From the NCBI GenBank assembly GCA_963840885.1, contig CAWJAN010000001.1, positions 9,669 through 73,668 on the forward strand: DNA of 64,000 nucleotides. The letters are read 5' to 3'. The position numbers and the translations under genes were made by a program. Numbering within the stretch: position 1 is the first letter of the stretch; each line of letters opens with the position of its first letter. The notes under the pieces were generated by a model. The model saw only the letters and a program-made list of their open reading frames with translations, searched no databases and had not been told where the DNA came from. Below are positions 20,902-40,960 of this stretch, one piece after another. The DNA is from an uncultured bacterium. GTDB lineage: Bacteria; Patescibacteriota; Minisyncoccia; Phycocordibacterales; GWA1-40-21.

Positions 20902-21795
20902 ATGCCGTGCTCGGCTCGCGCTCCCCCGTCTCCCACGGTGTCGTCGTCGCCGCTCGCGCTCCTCGTCGTCCTCGCGGTCTCCTCCGCGGTCTCGGTGACC
21001 GCGCAGCGGCTGGCCGACGGCCAGGCGCCGAAGTTCACGGTGGATCCGTTCTGGCCGAAGCCGCTGCCCAACCGCTGGCTGCTCGGCCAGGTGGCGGGCG
21101 TGGCGGTCGACCCGCTCGACCACGTGTGGATCGTGCAGCGGCCGCGCACCCTGACCGACGACGAGAAGGGCGCCACGCTCAACCCGCCGCGCAACGAGTG
21201 CTGCGTGCCCGCGCCGCCGGTGATGGAGTTCGACAGCGAGGGCAACCTGCTCCAGGCCTGGGGCGGGCCCGGGCCGGGCTACGACTGGCCGGCCAACGAG
21301 CACGGCATCTTCGTGGACCCGTCCGGCAACGTGTGGCTGGCCGGCAACGGGGAGAAGGACGACCAGATCCTCAAGTTCAGCCGCGACGGCCGGTTCCTGA
21401 TGCAGATCGGCAAGCCGGGCTCGAGCGGCGGCGACGCCGACACCGCGCAACCTCAATCGCCCCGCCGACGTGCGGGTGGACGCGGCGGCCAACGAGCTGT
21501 ACGTGGCGGACGGCTACGCCAACCACCGGGTCATCGTGTTCGACGCGACCACCGGCGCCTACAAGCGCCACTGGGGCGCCAACGGCCGGCCCCCGGGCGA
21601 CGCGAGCGTGAAGCAGTTCCGGAACCCGGTGCACTGCGTGCGCATCGCGACCGACGGGCTCGTCTACGTCTGCGACCGGATGAACAACCGGATCCAGGTC
21701 TTCAAGAAGGACGGCACCTTCGTGAGCGAGTTCGCCCTGGCGATCTCGACGACCGGCAACGGATCGGTGTGGGACCTCGACTTCTCCCGCGACCC
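20902..21795 (+). CDS. secreted NHL-repeat beta-propeller protein, 3' truncated at the composition junction
   Basis: Signal peptide plus repeated VVFDATTG / LVYVCDRMNNRIQVF motifs. The frame runs into low-GC sequence at about 21,795 with no natural stop. Confidence 0.5.
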
Positions 21796-22596
21796 ATATT
21801 TATCGTCCTTATCGGTATTGTAAAATTCCACCCAGCCGCATCTTGCTCCCGGCCAAGGAAATTCTTTTGAGATTCCGCGCATCGCAAGCCCTGGAACGCC
21901 GTCTATCACTTGTGCAAGCTTCCTGTGCTCAACGCCGCCGTAATAAAGATTGGAATATATCTCATCCGATATGACGAATAGGTCGAATTCCCTTGCAATA
22001 TCGACGATTTGTTTCATTATTTCTATCGGAAATACGGCGCCTGTGGGATTGTCCGGATTTACGATTAAGACGGCACATATTTCAGGATGAGCTTTTATTT
22101 TTTCACGCAAATCTTTAAGGTCCGGATACCAATGGTTTTCCGGATCAAGCTTATATGTCATATGCGGCGAGCCTGCATGGGCGGCTTCGGCTGAGGAGTG
22201 AGTGGAATATGCTGGATTCGGCCCTATTACGCGCGAGCCGGGATTGAGATAATTATAAATGGTGGCGATAGCATCGCCAAGGCCGTTGAAGAATAAGATA
22301 TCGTCCGGTTTTATCTGTGCTCCGCCTTCCAGGTTTCTTTCGTATGCTATGTATTCTCTCGTATCCAGAAGTCCTTTTGTAGGCGAATAGCCGAAGCAGG
22401 AATTATCTTTCAAAACAGTGTCGGAAACTATTTTCTTTATCCAGGCCGGCACTTCCTCGCCTTTTGCCACCGGATCGCCGATATTTTCCCAGACGATTTT
22501 AACGCCGGTCTTTTCTATCTTGTTTGCAACATCCACTATCTCGCGGATTTCATAAACGAGCTCATCAGCTCCTGGATGTACTATATTATTTCGCAT
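21796..22596 (-). CDS. class I/II (PLP-dependent) aminotransferase, 3' truncated at the composition junction
   Basis: MRNNIVHPGADEL..NPDNPTGAVF..GLAMRGISKEFPWPGARCGWVEF; only about 265 aa of an expected 390 precede the junction. Confidence 0.7.
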
Positions 22597-30209: not shown

Positions 30210-30413
30210 GGACGCCTCGTTTCTAGCTAGGAATGACCAACCTGGAATTTAGATTACAATGAATAAGAGGAATGTCAATTTGATTTTTTATTTCTTTTAA
30301 AACAGATGCGATTTTTTCAGATATTTGCATATTATGTTTCATTCTACAGATATTTTTATATCTTTGTAAGATTAAATTTTTCGACGCGACTCGTGTGCTC
30401 GAACTACGCACGT

Positions 30414-30444
30414 GCTAGCTGGCAGTCTAGGACGATGTTGGAAC
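30414..30444. repeat. tRNA-Gln 3'-end-like repeat, copy R1
   Basis: GCTAGCTGGCAGTCTAGGACGATGTTGGAAC; immediately 3' of the minus-strand DUF305 gene. Confidence 0.6.
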
Positions 30445-30453
30445 AATCATCAC

Positions 30454-30900
30454 TCAATTTAAAGATTGAAGTTTGGTTTTCATCCAATCAATCTGTGATT
30501 GTTGGCTTGAAATTATATCTTTGCATAACTGTTGAATTTCAGTGTCTTGTAGGTTGGCTTTATTGCACATTAGTATCGCAGCACCATGATGAGATATCAT
30601 TGATTTTAGAAATTCTTTATCCGAGATACCAGTCTGGTTGCGTATGAAAATAAAAGACACAACAAGAAAAAAAATACTTATAATCATAGTAATAATTTTT
30701 GTTTTATTTTCGTACATTGATCCCATCACTGCTATTTCAATTAGTACCATAGCAGATGTCATGGCGAGTACCATGTAGACTTGATCCAGGTTTATGTAGA
30801 TATTACCAAAAGTATCAACCATCATGTACATAAGTACAAACATCACGCAGAATGAAAGTACAATCATTATGAAAAATTTAGATAATTTTATATGTTCCAT
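30454..30900 (-). CDS. DUF305-family membrane protein
   Basis: MISHHGAAILMC motif of DUF305 plus N-terminal TM helices. Confidence 0.55.
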   Translation of the reverse strand: MEHIKLSKFFIMIVLSFCVMFVLMYMMVDTFGNIYINLDQVYMVLAMTSAMVLIEIAVMGSMYENKTKIITMIISIFFLVVSFIFIRNQTGISDKEFLKSMISHHGAAILMCNKANLQDTEIQQLCKDIISSQQSQIDWMKTKLQSLN

Positions 30901-30933
30901 ACAACTAAATTATATCAGACTTAAAAAGTATTT

Positions 30934-30960
30934 GCTGGCCGTCTGGGACGATGTTGGAAC
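30934..30960. repeat. tRNA-Gln 3'-end-like repeat, copy R2
   Basis: GCTGGCCGTCTGGGACGATGTTGGAAC, 3' of the DUF2726 gene. Confidence 0.6.
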
Positions 30961-32257: not shown

Positions 32258-34120
32258 TTATTTAATTATGCTTTTAAAATATTTTTCGGTTTCCTTATCT
32301 ATAAAATAAACATAGCACCCTTTCATTCCGCGAGTCATAAGCGTGCGATAGGTATTTTTTATAATTTTATCCGATTTCTCAGAGGCAAACTTTGGATTAT
32401 TCTTAAAATCTGCTTTATATCCCTTTAATGAGGCATCTGTCTTAGCGCGTTTACTCGGATCAGTAATAACTTTTCCGTCTCTGACAACAAAATCCGGACC
32501 AACTATCACACCTATATAGTCAACCTCAAGACCCTGACAGGTATGTATGCAACCGACTTCATTTACTGATTTTGGTGAGATAATCCAAACGTTTCCATCT
32601 TCTGATAGGTTCCATTTCATTTCAAAGTCATATTCTGGAATGACAATATCTTTGAGTGATTTATTCTTCTTACTTATCCAGTTCCAACAGTAACCTGCGA
32701 CAAGGCGAGCCTTATTATTTATTTCGTTTTTATTGAAAATTAAATCTCTGAGTTCATTAGGTGAATCAACAATTTTAAAATCATAGTTAATACCTTCAAG
32801 TGTTTTGTTTGCCGTTTCTTTTATTTGTAATGAATTATCAAGCCATGAAAGATAACCATCTGATCCATTACATCTAAATTGCGATTCTAATTTTAAAAGA
32901 TGAGTTTTTGCGCCAATTTTTATTGCCCACTTTTCTATTTCTTCTTTTTTCCCTATATCGTGCCATGTGACTTTTTGATCTTCATCAATAAAAAATACCG
33001 AACATTTTGAAGCCTCTATTATTTCTTTAATCTGATTTTCTCCAAGATTTTTAAACATACCAGACTTTTCATTTAATCTATGAGCTTCATCAACAAGAAG
33101 ACAATCAAAAGTGTCCATATTACAGCTAATATAAGAGCCGGAACCGGTAAACATATTTGAAATTTGTGTTTTTTTAAGCGTTCCAGTTAGTTTACTCTCG
33201 AAAACTGCCCTCGGTGCAGCATTCTTTGTTACATATTGAGTATTCAAACCAAGCTTTGTTATTGCTACAAGCAAGTTAACGGCGACAACTGATTTACCTG
33301 TTCCTGGACCTCCATCAACCATGAGAACATTTTTATTATCACAAGTGGATTTTTTAGTTAGAGCTAAAGCAGTTTCATAAACAATTTTTTGGTCATCAAT
33401 CATGATAAATTCTTGATTGCCTTTTATCATTGATGCCATACTATCTGCAAGATTTTTTGATGGACGTATATCTCCATTATCAATTCTATATAATGTATTC
33501 TTTTTCTCTCCATGTTTAATAAACTTCGTAATAAAATCTTGAAGTTTTTTTTTGTCTCCTTTACAGAAAGCTGGAGCCTTTCCTAGGTAATCATTATAAA
33601 AGGAATCCAGAATTACAGCATTATCTAAGTAATTATGTAGGTAAGCACATGGTTCAAGTCCAATATTCTCTTCGTAGACAACAGCATTAAAACCATAAAG
33701 TAATGTTGAATATGACCATGCTTGATACGATGGATGTAATTCCTCGCTTGGACCACTTGCAAAGTGAGTAATAACCATTGCATCCTTATCTGTTTTTTGA
33801 ATATCAGTCCACTGTTTGAGTTCAATAATGACTACTTTTTCCTTACCATTTTCATCTTCCCCTGTAATAACAAAATCGATTCTGTTTTTGGTTCTAGGTA
33901 TTGAGTATTCGATAGCAACACCAGAATCATTCGGTATTTTGTCTGACTGCATCACTTTATACATTGCATCACCCAAAGAGTTCTTCCATGAGTTATATTC
34001 ACTACTTCCTACCTTAATATCAATATTGAGTTTTTCCTTTACTTTAGATTTTACGATGTCCTCAATCCCATTGGAAGCATCATTCAAAAATCCAAGCTTG
34101 GTGGATTGATAGACTATCAT
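32258..34120 (-). CDS. DUF2075-family protein: N-terminal PD-(D/E)xK nuclease-like domain fused to a Schlafen/SF1-like P-loop ATPase
   Basis: N-terminal IDFVITGEDENGKEKVVIIELKQW (D..ELK). Walker A VDGGPGTGKSVVAVNL. Walker B LLVDEAHRL. Start overlaps the MazG stop by 4 nt. Confidence 0.7.
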   Translation of the reverse strand: MIVYQSTKLGFLNDASNGIEDIVKSKVKEKLNIDIKVGSSEYNSWKNSLGDAMYKVMQSDKIPNDSGVAIEYSIPRTKNRIDFVITGEDENGKEKVVIIELKQWTDIQKTDKDAMVITHFASGPSEELHPSYQAWSYSTLLYGFNAVVYEENIGLEPCAYLHNYLDNAVILDSFYNDYLGKAPAFCKGDKKKLQDFITKFIKHGEKKNTLYRIDNGDIRPSKNLADSMASMIKGNQEFIMIDDQKIVYETALALTKKSTCDNKNVLMVDGGPGTGKSVVAVNLLVAITKLGLNTQYVTKNAAPRAVFESKLTGTLKKTQISNMFTGSGSYISCNMDTFDCLLVDEAHRLNEKSGMFKNLGENQIKEIIEASKCSVFFIDEDQKVTWHDIGKKEEIEKWAIKIGAKTHLLKLESQFRCNGSDGYLSWLDNSLQIKETANKTLEGINYDFKIVDSPNELRDLIFNKNEINNKARLVAGYCWNWISKKNKSLKDIVIPEYDFEMKWNLSEDGNVWIISPKSVNEVGCIHTCQGLEVDYIGVIVGPDFVVRDGKVITDPSKRAKTDASLKGYKADFKNNPKFASEKSDKIIKNTYRTLMTRGMKGCYVYFIDKETEKYFKSIIK

Positions 34121-34122
34121 TT

Positions 34123-34470
34123 TTACAATTGGTTATATTTTTTGTGATTACCTTTAGCTTTTTCAACTGAATATTTTTGTTCATTCTTTTCCATCTTATC
34201 ATCTAAAGATTTTACAAGATCAATATCTAAATCCTTACTCATGAGAAGTATCCAGTATAAAGTATCAGCTAATTCATCAGCGATATCAGTCTTATTGGTT
34301 TTTATATATTCTTCTATCTCCTTAGTATTTTTCCATTGGAAATGTTCCATCACCTCAGTAGCTTCAAGTACAAGTGAAATTGCTAAATCTTTAGGGTTAT
34401 GAAATTGTTTCCAATCTCGTGCATCTCTAAAATCTAATATTCTTTTTGAGAGTCTTTCAATATCTGACAT
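34123..34470 (-). CDS. MazG-like all-alpha nucleoside triphosphate pyrophosphohydrolase
   Basis: 115 aa with EExxE-type metal-binding motifs (LEATEVMEHF, ADELADTLYWIL). Confidence 0.6.
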   Translation of the reverse strand: MSDIERLSKRILDFRDARDWKQFHNPKDLAISLVLEATEVMEHFQWKNTKEIEEYIKTNKTDIADELADTLYWILLMSKDLDIDLVKSLDDKMEKNEQKYSVEKAKGNHKKYNQL

Positions 34471-34479
34471 TATTTTATT

Positions 34480-34950
34480 TTAAATTTTATTTTTTAATAT
34501 AAAGTTTTTTAACCATTCAGCATCTTCATTCATAATAAGTAATGAACCAGACGGTCTATTTTCTGAATTTCCATTATTTATTCGTATTTGGCCAGGAGAC
34601 GCCGTCCATATATTTATTCTACTCACTCCAAAAATCATAGCAATAATACCCTTTTTTATAATTATATTTTGGATACTACTAAAAGGAATGGATTTTGATT
34701 TTTTAATTAAAATCCCTGAATTTATTGTTAGTGTTTTTTCAGACACAATAAAATTAATACACGCATAATCTAAAAGTAACCAAATGGCAACCAAAATCAT
34801 AAATCTACCAAGAGAATTAAAAGTATCTGGCATATCGCTAACAAGACCACCAATAAATAAGGTAATTATAAAGAGTATTATAAAAAGCCAAGTTATTCCA
34901 TATAATCTTGCTGACCAAGGTAATTTTATTTTTTGATTAAGTGTAATCAT
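34480..34950 (-). CDS. membrane protein with bacterial PH domain (bPH_2, YdbS/YdbT-like)
   Basis: Two N-terminal TM helices then a PH-like region; ends 10 nt upstream of the MazG gene. Confidence 0.5.
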   Translation of the reverse strand: MITLNQKIKLPWSARLYGITWLFIILFIITLFIGGLVSDMPDTFNSLGRFMILVAIWLLLDYACINFIVSEKTLTINSGILIKKSKSIPFSSIQNIIIKKGIIAMIFGVSRINIWTASPGQIRINNGNSENRPSGSLLIMNEDAEWLKNFILKNKI

Positions 34951-35968: not shown

Positions 35969-36120
35969 GCTGGGACTTATAACGGACGTTAGAACTATGA
36001 TGCTTAAATCTGAACCTGAAAATCTTTCGTTAGAACCAACCGATAATGTAGGATTGAAGCCACAAAATAGTAATTTTGAAACTCTAAATCCTACTTTGCT
36101 GGCCGACTCGAGTTAGAACC
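35969..36120. repeat. cluster of three partial tRNA-Gln 3'-end-like repeats (R6a-c)
   Basis: GCTGGGACTTATAACGGACGTTAGAAC (35969-35995); CGTTAGAACC (36028-36037); GCTGGCCGACTCGAGTTAGAACC (36098-36120). R6c is 17/23 identical to the tRNA-Gln 3' end. Confidence 0.6.
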
Positions 36121-36405
36121 ACCACTGGTCAAGCACCCCAATGTCATTCTTAGCTTTTTAAGTGTATCAGAACGACGCGACTCGAGCGACTTAAAAAGTG
36201 ACAAAAGTGACAATTTTATCGCTTGTAATATTCACTACCTCTTGCGAGACTTTCAAACGTTTCTTACAACACCATAATAAAGTTAGAGAAACTAGATAGA
36301 CCTGCAAATCCAACCGTAGAAACACTCACGCTTCTTGCGAAGGCACTGGAAACCTCTATCCCAGCATTGCTCTCTCATGAGGGATAGCTGACTTTCCTGA
36401 TTATT

Positions 36406-37368
36406 TTACTTGCCCCGCAGTAGAGTTAGGAAGAACGTCAAGATACCTGAAGCGAAAAAGGCAAAAGCGAAATTGTATTGGATTATGGTAACAATCAGGG
36501 ACAGCAACCAAAGAGCTACAGACACAACGACGAATAGCCAAACCCACTGAAGAACGAAAGCACTGAATTTGATACCGAAAGAAACTTTATTCTTTACTTC
36601 CTTCTTCGTAGATGCGGGTTTTTTGTTTAGAAATACCTCAATATGTTCTAGGATTTCTTTACTTGATCTAAATTCACCATTAGAAATACCAACATACTCT
36701 TTTGATTTCTCATCAAACAATTTCTCTTGGATTTTGTTTACATGTTCTATGGCTTTTTTGCTTTCTTCATCTGACATAGCGTCTTGTTTTGATTTTGGAT
36801 ACCAAATTTCTCGTCCTGTTGCATATTCATCAGTAATTTTTAATCCGGTAGTATCTGATGCGAGGATTTTCTCAATTTTAAGTGTTGCAGTCTTTATTTT
36901 TTCTGCGAACTGTCTCAGATGACGGCGATAATCATCCGGAGAAATTATTTCAGGGTGTTTAGAAAGTATATACATAGATACAGGCAACCAGCCCTCGTGC
37001 CATTCAACTTCTTTTTTAAGACCATCGATAAACCCTTTGGTCATCGAGCTCATAGAAGCCACTTCATTTCTGTCAGTAAGAATATCGGTCTCCAAAACAA
37101 CACCATCTTTCACACAGTATCGTTCTGGTGGCTCATCTACTCGTTCAGTTAGTCGAGTTTCCACTTTCACTGGATCAGTTTTAATGCGATATTCAAATTT
37201 TTCGGTACGGTAGTAGACATCATCCTTCAAACGCATTCTTGATTGATAAGTTTTTGAATCCGGAAACACATCAATTGTAAAATCTGCGTATTCGTCGTCA
37301 AGTGAAAGTGTATTATCGCCGTCTTCTTCAAAGATTTCTATTTTCATATTAAAAATATAATACCACAA
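36406..37368 (-). CDS. hypothetical protein with C-terminal TM helices
   Basis: 320 aa; soluble N-terminal region, two C-terminal TM helices; immediately downstream of the HEPN-motif gene. Confidence 0.45.
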   Translation of the reverse strand: MWYYIFNMKIEIFEEDGDNTLSLDDEYADFTIDVFPDSKTYQSRMRLKDDVYYRTEKFEYRIKTDPVKVETRLTERVDEPPERYCVKDGVVLETDILTDRNEVASMSSMTKGFIDGLKKEVEWHEGWLPVSMYILSKHPEIISPDDYRRHLRQFAEKIKTATLKIEKILASDTTGLKITDEYATGREIWYPKSKQDAMSDEESKKAIEHVNKIQEKLFDEKSKEYVGISNGEFRSSKEILEHIEVFLNKKPASTKKEVKNKVSFGIKFSAFVLQWVWLFVVVSVALWLLSLIVTIIQYNFAFAFFASGILTFFLTLLRGK

Positions 37369-37374
37369 AACTAG

Positions 37375-38142
37375 TTAAATTTCTGCTCCGTAAGCTTGGT
37401 CACAAATACCAACAACAAAATTAAAAAACTTCTGTGATAATTCCAAGAGTTTAGTATTTATCGGAGAATTTTTATTACGTGGATCATCTTGTACCATAAT
37501 CGCATAATTTAAATCTATCACTACTTTATCATTGATGTTATTCGGAGCTTCTACAATTTTAACCACACCTTCATGTTCAATAACATTTCTGTAATCAAAA
37601 AGAAGTTTGTATATGGTATCGTTATTTGAATTTTCAATTATACTTTTAAGTTCGGTGTTTTTCTTTTCAAGATCTTTAAGCTTTTTACAAAGTTCCCCCC
37701 AATCTGGTCTTTTAATTCCAAGACTATATATTTCATTTATCTCATTTGCCAACCAATCAAGAGAACTCATAAGAGAGATTGTTAGAGTATAAAAATATTC
37801 GTGTATTCTAATAGTTTCAATTGTAAATATCTCACCGGTATTTCCAGTTGATGGATCTGGATATAATGTAGAAGTTGGAACTCCCGATAGACCTATTGTG
37901 GTTATTGGTAATGTATATTGTCCAGTTTTTCTTGCCACACTAAGTTGTTGCTCTTTTAAATTAGAAAGTGCATCTTGAGCAAAGAGTAAACGCATAGTTA
38001 AAACATTTATTCCATATTTTTTAAGTGGGTTGTTGCCTATATTTTCAAGTTTGTTCCACAAAAACTCTTGGTTATTAAAAAATGGTGCTAGATCTGCCAA
38101 ACCACGATTATCTCTATAAGTGTTGAAGAAATATCCTTTCAT
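37375..38142 (-). CDS. hypothetical protein with a HEPN-like Rx4H motif (Abi-like)
   Basis: 255 aa; C-terminal YRNVIEHEG fits the HEPN Rx4-6H signature; no other domain recognised. Confidence 0.4.
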   Translation of the reverse strand: MKGYFFNTYRDNRGLADLAPFFNNQEFLWNKLENIGNNPLKKYGINVLTMRLLFAQDALSNLKEQQLSVARKTGQYTLPITTIGLSGVPTSTLYPDPSTGNTGEIFTIETIRIHEYFYTLTISLMSSLDWLANEINEIYSLGIKRPDWGELCKKLKDLEKKNTELKSIIENSNNDTIYKLLFDYRNVIEHEGVVKIVEAPNNINDKVVIDLNYAIMVQDDPRNKNSPINTKLLELSQKFFNFVVGICDQAYGAEI

Positions 38143-38298
38143 ATTTAATGTCTAACATAAAAACCTCTTATTCACAATTAATCTGCCATTGGATAGCAGA
38201 AGTTCGAATCCCACCTCCTATTATTTTATGGTGTGGTGTAATATGTCAAATATTCAGACTTGAGGGTCTATTTTAATACTTGTATTTAAATACAACTT

Positions 38299-38321
38299 GC
38301 TGTGCGGCTCGAGTTAGAACC
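38299..38321. repeat. tRNA-Gln 3'-end-like repeat, copy R7
   Basis: GCTGTGCGGCTCGAGTTAGAACC; 20/23 identical to R6c. Confidence 0.6.
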
Positions 38322-38394
38322 TTGCTCGGACAAGCCCCACAAGGTGATTTTGAATGATTTGAGTATATGAAATCAACGTGACTAGAGGTACTAG

Positions 38395-38601
38395 TTAAGC
38401 CTTACGCCAATGATCTCGTTTACCAATCTTTGTTATTCGAACACGCTCAATAAGAAGTTCTTGTGGGTCGAGCTTTTGCGCTTTCTCGATCGCCTTTTCT
38501 TGTGTAGTAGCAGTTGCAATAGGTTTTTTTACCTTAGGCGCCTTTACTCCATAATTACCATTTGGTAATCGTTCTACAAATAATTTTTTAGGTTTGTTCA
38601 T
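38395..38601 (-). CDS. DUF2188-family small protein
   Basis: VERLPNGNYGVKAP..TTQEKAIEKAQKL..ERVRITKIGKRDHW matches the DUF2188 pattern. Confidence 0.5.
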   Translation of the reverse strand: MNKPKKLFVERLPNGNYGVKAPKVKKPIATATTQEKAIEKAQKLDPQELLIERVRITKIGKRDHWRKA

Positions 38602-38615
38602 CTTTTACATTCTAT

Positions 38616-38638
38616 CACAAAAGTGACAAAAGTGACAG
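38616..38638 (-). promoter_or_regulatory. direct repeat GTGACAAAAGTGACA in the 5' region of the DUF2188 gene (operator-like)
   Basis: CACAAAAGTGACAAAAGTGACAG lies 15-37 nt upstream of the start codon; a second copy is at 36194-36213. Confidence 0.35.
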
Positions 38639-38641
38639 TTT

Positions 38642-39784
38642 TTAATCCTCTATATTTATATCTGGAATGTACCCGTAATTATGTAGAGCATTTAGTATTA
38701 CTGAGTACAAAGCTTCTTGAGGTACTTGGAAAAGTGGAAATAGTGGTAGCGCTTGAAGTGTTTCTGCATTACCAGCGTCTTTATCAGTTTGATAATGAAA
38801 CGAGAAATTAGTAAAATATACTGCATTATATGTTGATGGGTTTTCTGGTGTATTTGGTTCTTGTTTTTTTGCCGTATTTAAAATATCTTTTATCCATGTT
38901 TTTTGCTTAAAATCCTCAAAGTCTTCTTGCGGTGCATTTACATCAATAAAAATTATAAAGGGCATTTTCCCGCACTCGGTTTTCTTTAAAGCTTGATTAA
39001 ACAGACGTTGAATATCTCCCTTACGATTTTTTAAATTATCTACTTTACCTGGAGTATGCAGAACTCCAGCTCGATGTCTACTTTTTGCCTCAACAGCTAT
39101 TTCAGTACCTGTTTCCGTATGAATTGCAATAAACTCAGAATGTTTTTCTGTATTATCATCTATCCATTTTATGGTGAATCCTAATCTTGCAATTATTGCG
39201 GCTACCATAATTTCATATCTTGCACCTTGATATTGACGTGGTATACGTAAACGTTTAATAAGCGAATCAGGGAGGTTTGAACAATTTCTTAGGGTCGCTA
39301 TATCAAATGCAAGTGTCAACATAGATTTAACCCAACCATTTGGCGGGTATGCAAATATCCCATCCTTTGATGGTTCAACTATTTTTATTAGTTCTTTTTT
39401 CCACTGATCAGCATGAGAAAAACATTTAAAGATATGGTGCCTGTCATCTTCTGATAATAATTTCTGTTTTGAAAACCAATCAGACCCAAGTGTATCCCTA
39501 AGGGCGATCTGGACAAAATCATGGAAAGTTTGATTCAGTTCTGGACTTGAATATAGTTGATTGCCCAAGGCCCAGATTTTTTTATCCTTAAATATTATGG
39601 GTGTTACATAATTCATATAGATACCTCTACTTTGTAATTCCTCCTTTTTCTCTTTAGTTTTTTTGAAAAAATCCAATGCTTCTTGGGGAATTTTGTCTTG
39701 ATCCATATGACATTTTTTATATTTTTTCCCACTATTACATGGGCAGTGATCATTTCTGCCTATCTTCATACTATTTATAAACAC
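38642..39784 (-). CDS. SEC-C metal-binding motif protein with a possible PD-(D/E)xK-like core
   Basis: N-terminal NDHCPCNSGKKYKKCH SEC-C motif; internal EFIAIHTETGTEIAVEAKSR segment. Confidence 0.55.
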   Translation of the reverse strand: MFINSMKIGRNDHCPCNSGKKYKKCHMDQDKIPQEALDFFKKTKEKKEELQSRGIYMNYVTPIIFKDKKIWALGNQLYSSPELNQTFHDFVQIALRDTLGSDWFSKQKLLSEDDRHHIFKCFSHADQWKKELIKIVEPSKDGIFAYPPNGWVKSMLTLAFDIATLRNCSNLPDSLIKRLRIPRQYQGARYEIMVAAIIARLGFTIKWIDDNTEKHSEFIAIHTETGTEIAVEAKSRHRAGVLHTPGKVDNLKNRKGDIQRLFNQALKKTECGKMPFIIFIDVNAPQEDFEDFKQKTWIKDILNTAKKQEPNTPENPSTYNAVYFTNFSFHYQTDKDAGNAETLQALPLFPLFQVPQEALYSVILNALHNYGYIPDINIED

Positions 39785-40124
39785 ATAGATTCATAATGAT
39801 AGGATTTACGACTAAATATATTTCCCAAATAAATAAACAAACAAAAACAAGAAACATTGTTGAGATCACCACCTCTTCTTTTTTCTCATTTTTCCCTTCA
39901 AGTTTCGATTGATATTTTTTTAGTTCTTTATATAAAATATTAAAAAAATTGAATATGATATAGAGTATACCAATAGTTACCAAACTCTTAAGTGCTGTGA
40001 TGCCAGAGATATCCTTAATTGGTAGTGCACAATATGTTTGTGATAGGAATATTACCAAAGATAAACCAGCGGCAACCTCGAATAAAGATTTCATAACCGA
40101 AAATATCAGGAGCATTACTAGCAT
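39771..40124 (-). CDS. small hypothetical membrane protein
   Basis: 117 aa, three TM helices; overlaps the SEC-C gene start by 14 nt and the alternative ORF 40015..40281. Confidence 0.35.
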   Translation of the reverse strand: MLVMLLIFSVMKSLFEVAAGLSLVIFLSQTYCALPIKDISGITALKSLVTIGILYIIFNFFNILYKELKKYQSKLEGKNEKKEEVVISTMFLVFVCLFIWEIYLVVNPIIMNLCVYK

Positions 40125-40319: not shown

Positions 40320-40823
40320 CTACTTTATATTATCAAGAACAATTTTAGCTTCTGCCAATAGTGATTTTGTAACACTTAAATTCCAAGCTCTCATCGTGGA
40401 GTGCCATCTTTTGAATTTAAGAAATTGTTCCCAAGTTAATTCAATAATTCTTTTAGGTTTATAGTCTTTAAAGATTTGAACAATAATGACATATTCAAAC
40501 TTTTTGTCTGGAATAATATAATCGTCTTTTTCGCCAACACCGTAAAAAACGCCAGTGGTACTACTCGGTTCAGAAATTGTCTTAATACTGTATCTTTCTC
40601 CTTTTCTACTTAAAGCATCTACATTCTGAGTACCTTCGGGAGCAGCTTGAAGATTAGGCATTCCACTTATTGAATTATAAGTTTCAACAGCCAAAAATTC
40701 CCCTCGTTCACCAACGATGTTATTTGTTCTAACTAGGTTACGTTTTTTTAATTCTTGCTGAATATCAGCATATCCTAGCCAAAGCTCTTCATTGTTTAAT
40801 TCATCAGTATTTACTTTTTTCAT
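40320..40823 (-). CDS. hypothetical protein (possible nuclease-like fold)
   Basis: 167 aa; GERGEFLAVETY segment; first gene next to tRNA-Gln; ORF 40015..40281 might be a frameshifted continuation. Confidence 0.4.
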   Translation of the reverse strand: MKKVNTDELNNEELWLGYADIQQELKKRNLVRTNNIVGERGEFLAVETYNSISGMPNLQAAPEGTQNVDALSRKGERYSIKTISEPSSTTGVFYGVGEKDDYIIPDKKFEYVIIVQIFKDYKPKRIIELTWEQFLKFKRWHSTMRAWNLSVTKSLLAEAKIVLDNIK

Positions 40824-40850
40824 AGCTATCTTTGAGCTAGCTCAAACTTG

Positions 40851-40921
40851 CTGGGGGACTTGGATTCGAACCAAGATAACAGCCTTCAAAGGGCCGTGTC
40901 CTACCATTAGACGATCCCCCA
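40851..40921 (-). tRNA. tRNA-Gln (anticodon UUG)
   Basis: Reverse complement folds as a cloverleaf: 7-bp acceptor UGGGGGA/UCCCCCA with U1:A72, T-arm CTTGG-TTCGAAT-CCAAG, anticodon loop CTTTGAA. Confidence 0.75.
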
Positions 40922-40929
40922 ATACTTTG

Positions 40930-40960
40930 GGTTTCGTGTCCTGCCATTAGCCTGCCCCCT
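40930..40960 (-). other. truncated tRNA 5'-half fragment (pseudo-tRNA) immediately upstream of tRNA-Gln
   Basis: Reverse complement GGGGGCAGGCTAATGGCAGGACACGAAACCC parallels the first ~31 nt of the intact tRNA. Confidence 0.5.

Follow-up and report, generated by a model that had tools for sequence, protein, structure and literature searches.

Introduction

In HEPN domains, the characteristic motif ends the third core helix and an Asp lies in the second helix (PMC3710099). Within this superfamily, the Cthe_2314-like family has been listed with the entry 'Rx4-6H: yes; contextual associations: none detected', the membrane-associated HEPN groups have their transmembrane (TM) segment fused to the HEPN domain, and HEPN cassettes are known in integrons (PMC3710099). 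Among genomic islands, the tycheposon islands of Prochlorococcus are tRNA-anchored and bear the traces of successive integrations (bioRxiv 10.1101/2020.12.28.424599). In the present study, we analysed a 64,000-nt stretch of DNA (the window, always meant at its full length) from an uncultured bacterium of the Patescibacteriota (assembly GCA_963840885.1, contig CAWJAN010000001.1, positions 9,669 to 73,668 of the forward strand), in which two adjacent genes, here called A and B, lie between two copies of a non-coding repeat, here called the junction element.

Gene A has the HEPN fold and an invariant catalytic triad, the relatives of A and those of B are distributed separately, and the two genes form a module between two junction-element copies in an island of defence genes. 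Taken as a whole, the explanation that we favour, with some reserve, is that A is a HEPN RNase toxin and B an independent cargo gene, both of them sitting in a cassette array bounded by junction elements.

Gene A, a HEPN-superfamily protein

The gene and the sites that belong to it are as follows.

37375..38142, minus strand: gene A, 255-aa HEPN-superfamily protein, predicted RNase (Pfam, alignment and AlphaFold2 model)
37756-37758, minus strand: codon of A residue D129
37588-37590, minus strand: codon of A residue R185
37573-37575, minus strand: codon of A residue H190
38220..38249, minus strand: promoter-like site ahead of A and within the module; TTGACA-18-AATAAT with 11 of 12 matches (consensus scan)

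The open reading frame (ORF) of 255 aa, in which an earlier note on this DNA had recognized a HEPN signature, is present as described and carries the segment YRNVIEHEG at residues 184-192. Its assignment to the HEPN proteins was borne out, the fold being HEPN-like in the predicted structure. The same note could name no family for either protein; this holds for B, but A is matched by Pfam PF18730 HEPN_Cthe2314 over residues 113-210 (E=1.7e-5, 25.3 bits), a match below the cutoff of that model.

The family of A is a small one. A search of 5.8 billion proteins yielded four close relatives, and an exhaustive profile search of 1.84 billion representative proteins yielded 33 members at E<=1e-3. Throughout an alignment of 31 distant relatives, which share ~25% identity with A, D129, R185 and H190 are the sole invariant positions, and the R-x4-H motif is thus conserved, with the consensus YRNRxxHDG and a polar residue after the Arg. 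HEPN_Cthe2314 is matched by 14 of the 31 relatives (E<0.01, the best at 2.5e-7), and HEPN_LA2681 instead by 3.

In the AlphaFold2 (AF2) model of A, four helices are confident (residues 47-71, 108-139, 176-191 and 232-252) and extra helices lie between the second and the third of them, which together give the four-helix up-and-down core with an insert between helices 2 and 3 that is typical of HEPN. The stretch R185-N-V-I-E-H190 makes up the C-terminal end of the third core helix (176-191), and the invariant D129 belongs to the LDRLAxEIN helix (108-139), the second core helix; this placement of motif and Asp gives the same geometry as that described for HEPN domains. The protein additionally possesses a conserved N-terminal extension of ~100 residues past the minimal HEPN core and a beta-hairpin after the motif. 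No solved structure related by sequence to A or B was found. The hidden Markov models (HMMs) of PADLOC-DB 2.0 gave no match to A or B at E<=0.1. A search for Abi and HEPN families, which the earlier note had proposed, succeeded for HEPN in the case of A and returned no PADLOC Abi match for either protein. Neither MNT nor any other recognizable antitoxin adjoins A: no nucleotidyltransferase domain is present in the ORFs that flank it or in any other neighbour.

We therefore place A in the HEPN superfamily, within a small clade peripheral (sister) to Cthe_2314, and regard its catalytic signature as intact. Judged from its sequence, A is best described as standing outside the curated membership of PF18730, which a peripheral or sister clade fits better. 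Its RNase activity is predicted by analogy with the catalytic HEPN domains.

Upstream of A, the promoter-like site at 38220..38249 is a candidate only, since promoter-like consensus sites do not overall exceed the chance count. The 5' leader of A contains, at window positions 38160-38215, a reverse-oriented tRNA-like fragment (...TTCGAATCCCACCTCC on the plus strand), as well as an 8-bp hairpin (38182-38200) and a 14-codon upstream ORF that has an AAGAGG Shine-Dalgarno-like site and overlaps the start of A out of frame.

Gene B, a membrane-anchored family of Patescibacteria

36406..37347, minus strand: gene B, 313 aa, Patescibacteria-specific, soluble N-terminal domain and two-helix anchor (homologue starts and AF2 model)
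36493-36579, minus strand: first TM helix of B (AF2 residues 257-285)
36412-36471, minus strand: second TM helix of B (AF2 residues 293-312)

The ORF 36406-37368 (minus strand) comprises 320 aa if it is started at the TTG at 37368, which is how the earlier note had read it, at a distance of 7 nt from A. An internal ATG at 37347 (MKIEIFEEDG...) is the start in 31 of 31 aligned B homologues and, because all of them begin there, the product is most likely one of 313 aa that starts 27 nt after the stop of A. The two C-terminal TM helices of that reading stand. They are visible both as a Kyte-Doolittle signal over residues 255-312 and in the AF2 model, a confident one (pLDDT 87.7), which consists of a seven-stranded antiparallel sheet, a helical region and a TM hairpin.

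For B, at least 174 homologues were found, and the loci that encode them carry labels of the candidate phyla radiation (CPR), namely Wolfebacteria, Paceibacterota, Magasanikbacteria, Gracilibacteria, Uhrbacteria, Nomurabacteria and others. Conservation covers the first ~250 residues, with invariant positions at Y53, P59, E72, D81-G82-V83, W116, H131, R145, F226 and L240, and the C-terminal membrane segments differ among subgroups. Pfam, NCBIfam, PHROG and PADLOC contained no match. We take B to be an uncharacterized, horizontally mobile, CPR-specific family of membrane-anchored proteins that is unrelated to A.

Separate distribution of the A and B families

Patescibacteria (CPR) genomes and groundwater or sediment metagenomes supplied the homologues of both proteins, and the loci gathered from these sources bear directly on the proposal of the earlier note that A and B make up a two-gene module of the abortive-infection type. 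This proposal was not supported, as relatives of A and relatives of B never co-occur in 9 other A loci and ~20 other distinct B loci. B stands next to an A-family gene in none of the 9 other A-family loci, and conversely no A-family gene occurs within 5 kb of B in the other B loci (26 locus records, ~20 of them distinct). A conserved partner for B was also sought among its immediate neighbours and rejected: the neighbours do not cluster with one another, and Pfam matches on 29 of them are singletons only (HTH, GNAT, S49 peptidase, TIR, SEC-C, endonuclease). Furthermore, DNA similarity among the B loci is limited to the B ORF itself (72-80% identity), and the third-position GC of the two genes in the window is 0.20 for A and 0.32 for B.

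A direct view of the exchange is offered by a hotspot behind an HTH gene of 93% identity, where one contig set carries a 261-aa TM protein together with an A relative and the other carries B together with three other genes.

Loci L031 1-2494 versus L010 4151-6228 and L011 17-2833: Xre-type HTH hotspot, alternative cargo sets, shared 40-nt right boundary

DNA homology between the two sets reaches exactly as far as the stop codon of the HTH gene and returns in a segment of 40 nt on the far side, and such sharp breakpoints indicate that A-type and B-type genes are alternative cargo of one hotspot.

The neighbourhoods of the A relatives are themselves variable. Ahead of the close relatives stand mutually unrelated membrane proteins with an N-terminal anchor, one of 383 aa (4-nt overlap), one with DUF4760 (4-nt overlap) and one of 261 aa; behind one distant relative comes a polytopic membrane protein of 205 aa whose gene overlaps it. 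Two other distant relatives have a DUF3467 gene 12 nt downstream, and one of these two lies directly behind a HinfI-type restriction-modification pair.

L035 2370-2660 and L094 2571-2819: small DUF3467 genes 12 nt downstream of distant A-family HEPN genes

DUF3467 may thus be a conserved antitoxin-like partner for part of the A family. At the locus P0003, an uncharacterized ORF of 190 aa comes before the A relative, and two A-family loci show no obvious partner. This variety fits the entry 'contextual associations: none detected' for the Cthe_2314-like family. Our search of the literature on DUF4760, DUF3467 and CPR cassettes found nothing relevant.

From the sequences compared here, a two-gene system of A and B is not supported. 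A and B look like separate, swappable cargo genes, and B is no conserved partner of A, although in this genome B is probably co-transcribed with A.

The junction element

38295..38387, minus strand: upstream bounding repeat, junction-element body, model positions 27-119 (R1 model, 45.9 bits, E=3e-13)
38616..38637, minus strand: head of the upstream junction-element copy, TGTCACTTTTGTCACTTTT (R1 positions 1-22, E=6e-4)
36093..36212, minus strand: downstream bounding repeat, complete junction-element copy that runs from the head through the 5' block to the tRNA-3'-like block (R1 model, 85.6 bits, E=1e-25)
Window copies, L023 and L037-L093: junction-element loci

The att-like repeats that the earlier note had seen on either side of the pair proved to be real, and more than local: the two direct repeats are copies of a widespread junction element, for which a sequence model, R1, was built from 50 copies. 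The element is non-coding and ~120 nt long. It starts with the head TGTCACTTTTGTCACTTTTT, in which TGTCAC occurs twice, continues with C[T/A]CGAG, ~6 nt and GTCG, passes through an A-rich spacer and ends with GGTTCTAAC-[T/A]CGAG-...CC[A/C]GC.

Within the window, the two bounding repeats have an exact 14-mer in common (GGTTCTAACTCGAG) and ~75% identity over roughly 64 nt. The 8-mer GTTAGAAC is found in 8 copies against 1.26 expected, a number that no shuffle reached, and an exact 19-mer of the head is found twice against 0.01 expected. In the upstream copy (window positions 38395-38637, minus strand), the head is parted from the body by a DUF2188 ORF of 68 aa, and the head at 38616..38637 coincides in part with a promoter-like site that would serve this ORF (CTGTCA-18-TAGAAT, preceded by TG). 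The 3' part of the 38295..38387 repeat resembles the 3' end of a tRNA, agreeing by eye with the tRNA-Gln 3' end at 19 of 26 positions; the comparison of the tRNA-Gln 3' half (anticodon arm to 3' end) with element positions 60-120 gave a weak match (7.5 bits, E=0.29). At least nine repeats with the box GTTC[TC]AAC, most of them ending in ...CCAGC, are located at 38.3, 36.1, 36.03, 35.99, 35.16, 32.06, 31.52, 30.95 and 30.43 kb, and delimit the remaining cassettes down to ~30.4 kb.

Beyond the window, the pattern head-N60-90-GGTTCTAAC was recovered at 57 metagenome loci with a spacing that is nearly always 77-78 nt, where chance matches are, by our own estimate, well below one. One B locus, L023, possesses the element as well. 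A large serine recombinase with confirmed domains adjoins it in 8 of the 57 loci; other neighbours are a reverse transcriptase (5 loci) and a DNA methylase (6 loci). Ten loci have a tRNA gene, which in 7 of them precedes the element by 1-7 kb and points the same way (tRNA-Gln in three, tRNA-Ser in three). At 7 loci, a full copy is followed at a distance of 0.5-4 kb by extra bodies that lack a head and share its orientation, and a second full copy is present at two loci. The two C[T/A]CGAG blocks are direct repeats that co-vary, with a within-locus identity of 3.4 out of 8 variable positions against 2.79 +/- 0.14 when shuffled, which fits recombination sites rather than base pairing. The junction element may be where recombination takes place in a so far undescribed cassette system of Patescibacteria, and it may be more interesting than the A-B pair itself.

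Several other identities of the element were tried. A known or structured RNA was rejected, for the strand tested gave no RNAalifold consensus and Rfam matched nothing besides tRNA, even at E<=5; a column-pair scan of alignment columns 61-95 detected no consistent helix, and in one sub-family a hairpin that by eye seemed to covary could not be established. A 40-aa ORF spans the element, and the idea of a small ORF was dropped because the copies differ by 1-2-nt indels. A phage origin of A, of B or of the element was likewise rejected, given the lack of any match in INPHARED phages, IMG/VR and BFVD.

Homologues of DUF2188 were also observed just upstream of the element in L038 and L052. In L051, L072 and L074 (for example L074 5220-5807), the element is preceded at 5-24 nt by a protein family of 195 aa with an R-x4-H-like motif of its own (HEWRNVIAHRW). 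Pfam does not match this family, which may be a further type of HEPN-like cargo.

Genomic setting

40850..40921, minus strand: tRNA-Gln(TTG), anchor of the island (ARAGORN and Rfam)

The GC content of the window is ~70% up to ~21.8 kb, ~36-46% beyond and 27-38% at ~30.4-41.5 kb, and the core genes on the flanks of this last, low-GC stretch have ~42%. The stretch starts directly after tRNA-Gln(TTG), and every gene in it is on the minus strand. Past ~21.8 kb, the housekeeping genes comprise MurB, a DNA polymerase III clamp-loader subunit, Dus, Def and Fmt.

The island opens with a type II methyl-directed restriction enzyme (PADLOC E=2.5e-58), which stands 27 nt after the tRNA at 40320-40823 (minus strand). 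Further genes are a SEC-C protein, the DUF2188 mini-protein, A, B, a membrane/coiled-coil protein and DUF2726, together with a trio at 32258-34950 (minus strand) made up of a bPH_2 membrane protein, a MazG-like gene and a Schlafen-type helicase, with PADLOC matches to PDC-S41, Nhi and AbiO-like models. Apart from A and B, then, the island looks like defence cargo. No integrase or site-specific recombinase domain was found in the ORFs tested between 21.6 and 50.4 kb of the window.

Just upstream of tRNA-Gln, at 40929-40959 (minus strand), lies a partial duplicate of the 5' half of the tRNA (GGGGGCAGGCTAATGGCAGGACACGAAACCC versus TGGGGGATCGTCTAATGGTAGGACACGGCCC). Pseudo-tRNAs inside the island were searched for with ARAGORN at relaxed thresholds, and this lead was abandoned, the search having produced scattered low-quality calls only. 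A membrane ORF at 39771-40124 (minus strand; 117 aa, C-terminus ...NPIIMNLCVYK) has homologues of ~190 aa; these lie upstream of a junction element, at a distance of 35-39 nt in L053, L057 and L066 and close to it in L074. Two more tRNA-3'-like repeats, GTTCCAACATCGTCC[C/T]AGAC[G/T]GCCAGC, at 30932-30960 and 30418-30444 (minus strand), flank a 148-aa membrane ORF (30454-30900), and past them, at 30382-30395, comes CACGAGTCGCGTCG, a match to the 5' block of the junction element; window positions 30382-30960 (minus strand) may be the distal end of the island.

At ~21700-21900 of the window, the GC content falls from ~72% to ~45% inside roughly 200 nt, and an aminotransferase ORF at this place (21664-22596, minus strand) matches its Pfam model over the first two-thirds only. 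Two unrelated genomes seem to be joined here in a chimera, whether by an artefact of assembly or binning or because the window was constructed.

Proposed mechanism and alternative explanations

According to the explanation that we favour, A and B would be two independent cargo genes in one slot of a low-GC, integrase-less cassette array downstream of tRNA-Gln. By analogy with characterized HEPN proteins, A would dimerize, and R185 and H190, with D129, would form a metal-independent composite RNase site, so that A may act as a toxin or an abortive-infection-type effector that cuts cellular or phage RNA once released from control; its trigger, its RNase activity and any role in defence are what we infer. 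B would be independent cargo that happens to share the transcript of A. The junction elements would mark where cargo was exchanged by site-specific recombination, and the module would have been placed there, probably by a serine recombinase acting in trans.

Several observations weigh against this explanation. The score of A lies 1.8 bits below the PF18730 gathering cutoff of 27.1, and its AF2 model is moderately confident (mean pLDDT 62, with four sequences as input). With no integrase in the island, the recombination mechanism is drawn from other loci. A and B are on the same strand with a 27-nt gap that holds neither a junction repeat nor a terminator-like site; both their arrival and their expression may thus have been joint. 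In addition, an adjacent and mostly overlapping membrane-protein gene accompanies A relatives in 4 of the 9 other A-family loci, with a different protein each time, and A could generally work with a membrane partner, a role that B would fill here.

The last two points are the core of the notion that A and B constitute one abortive-infection or toxin-antitoxin-like system, in which the membrane-anchored B would sense infection, hold or regulate A, or be the effector itself. It can further appeal to the single candidate promoter, upstream of A, to the pair being one unit between two junction repeats, to the tight linkage of other A relatives to membrane proteins (those of 383 aa, DUF4760, 261 aa and the polytopic 205 aa) and to the defence-island setting. 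Nevertheless, we regard such a system as unlikely. The 9 A loci and ~20 distinct B loci furnish no second adjacency of the two families; B is far commoner, with at least 174 homologues against 4 close relatives and 33 family representatives of A; B is found alone or beside unrelated genes; A relatives are also paired with DUF3467 or with nothing obvious; the membrane neighbours in 4 of 9 loci, suggestive as they are, do not clearly exceed a background that we estimate at ~20-25%; and neither gene was matched in PADLOC. Similarly doubtful, in our opinion, is a wider claim built on the same data, namely that the A-B module is an exchangeable cassette of an undescribed integron-like platform of Patescibacteria, situated downstream of tRNAs, with small integrase-less cassettes, many of them related to defence, with ~93-120-nt junction elements and with large serine recombinases that are encoded elsewhere and act in trans, and that A plus a changeable membrane protein represents a new modular design of HEPN effector.

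Even less probable appears the view of A as a selfish, addiction-type toxin that stabilizes the cassette or the island and is controlled by an RNA, by N-terminal autoinhibition or by an unannotated small ORF instead of by B. HEPN toxins are common in toxin-antitoxin modules and integron cassettes (PMC3710099), the module occupies an exchangeable slot, A has ~100 conserved N-terminal residues beyond the minimal HEPN core, and the small DUF3467 gene 12 nt downstream of two distant relatives has an antitoxin-like layout; on the other side, neither MNT nor a recognizable antitoxin stands beside A in the window, DUF3467 is absent here, and the computed results do not separate addiction from defence. 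Finally, A might be a helical, HEPN-like protein that binds RNA or another protein but has no catalytic activity, its motif being without enzymatic meaning. We give this very little credence, as the sole positions kept invariant in 31 divergent relatives, R185, H190 and D129, coincide exactly with those that are catalytic in active HEPN domains, and as in the consensus YRNRxxHDG the Arg is followed, as usual, by a polar residue.

Little of the defence and toxin repertoire of Patescibacteria (CPR) has been charted, since standard models miss the proteins involved, and here neither gene was matched in PADLOC. In this context, A adds a small, previously unnamed clade to the well-known HEPN toxin superfamily, and the tRNA-Gln island is marked as a hotspot of defence and cargo genes. 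The negative result on the pairing of A and B is also a warning against naming 'systems' from one adjacency. The junction element, being present in dozens of metagenome loci, could explain the exchange of small cargo among streamlined genomes.

Comparison with known systems

The array resembles integron cassettes in that small, mostly promoter-poor units of one or two genes are each followed by a repeat of ~100 nt. The reading of the repeat as an integron attC was rejected all the same, since the GTTCTAAC box is direct and inverted R''/R' core sites are lacking, there is no consensus hairpin or imperfect palindrome, and no IntI tyrosine recombinase lies nearby.

The likeness to tycheposon islands goes further, with an intact tRNA at one end, modules parted by direct repeats that resemble partial tRNAs, older modules pushed inward, large serine recombinases among the associated integrases, and cargo that is adaptive or defensive. 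Of what marks a tRNA-targeted island, the intact terminal tRNA and the tRNA-3'-like direct repeats inside it are present, whereas a recombinase in or next to the element is not found in this island. Unlike tycheposons, the array belongs to another phylum, its island has no integrase and its cassettes measure merely 0.5-3 kb; the repeat, too, is more than a piece of tRNA, being a conserved composite of ~120 nt whose 5' part (the TGTCAC x2 head and the C[T/A]CGAG block) does not derive from tRNA sequence.

As regards A itself, the HEPN toxins of HEPN-MNT pairs (for example PDB 8xdj, 5yep, 7ae2) share 5-8% identity with it, and A is twice as long and has no adjacent MNT. The Abi-type and membrane-associated HEPN proteins (AbiD/F, AbiJ, AbiU2, AbiV; PMC3710099) are comparable insofar as A is a HEPN protein in a defence island whose relatives often adjoin membrane proteins, but here the TM protein is a separate, non-conserved gene, and neither A nor B has a PADLOC Abi match. 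The closest resemblance is to the HEPN Cthe_2314-like family (PF18730; PMC3710099), with which A has in common the four-helix core, the R-x4-H that ends helix 3, the polar residue after the Arg, the acidic residue of helix 2 and the insert between helices 2 and 3, and from which it departs in its sub-cutoff score, its tiny clade of 33 representatives, its conserved N-terminal extension and the beta-hairpin after the motif.

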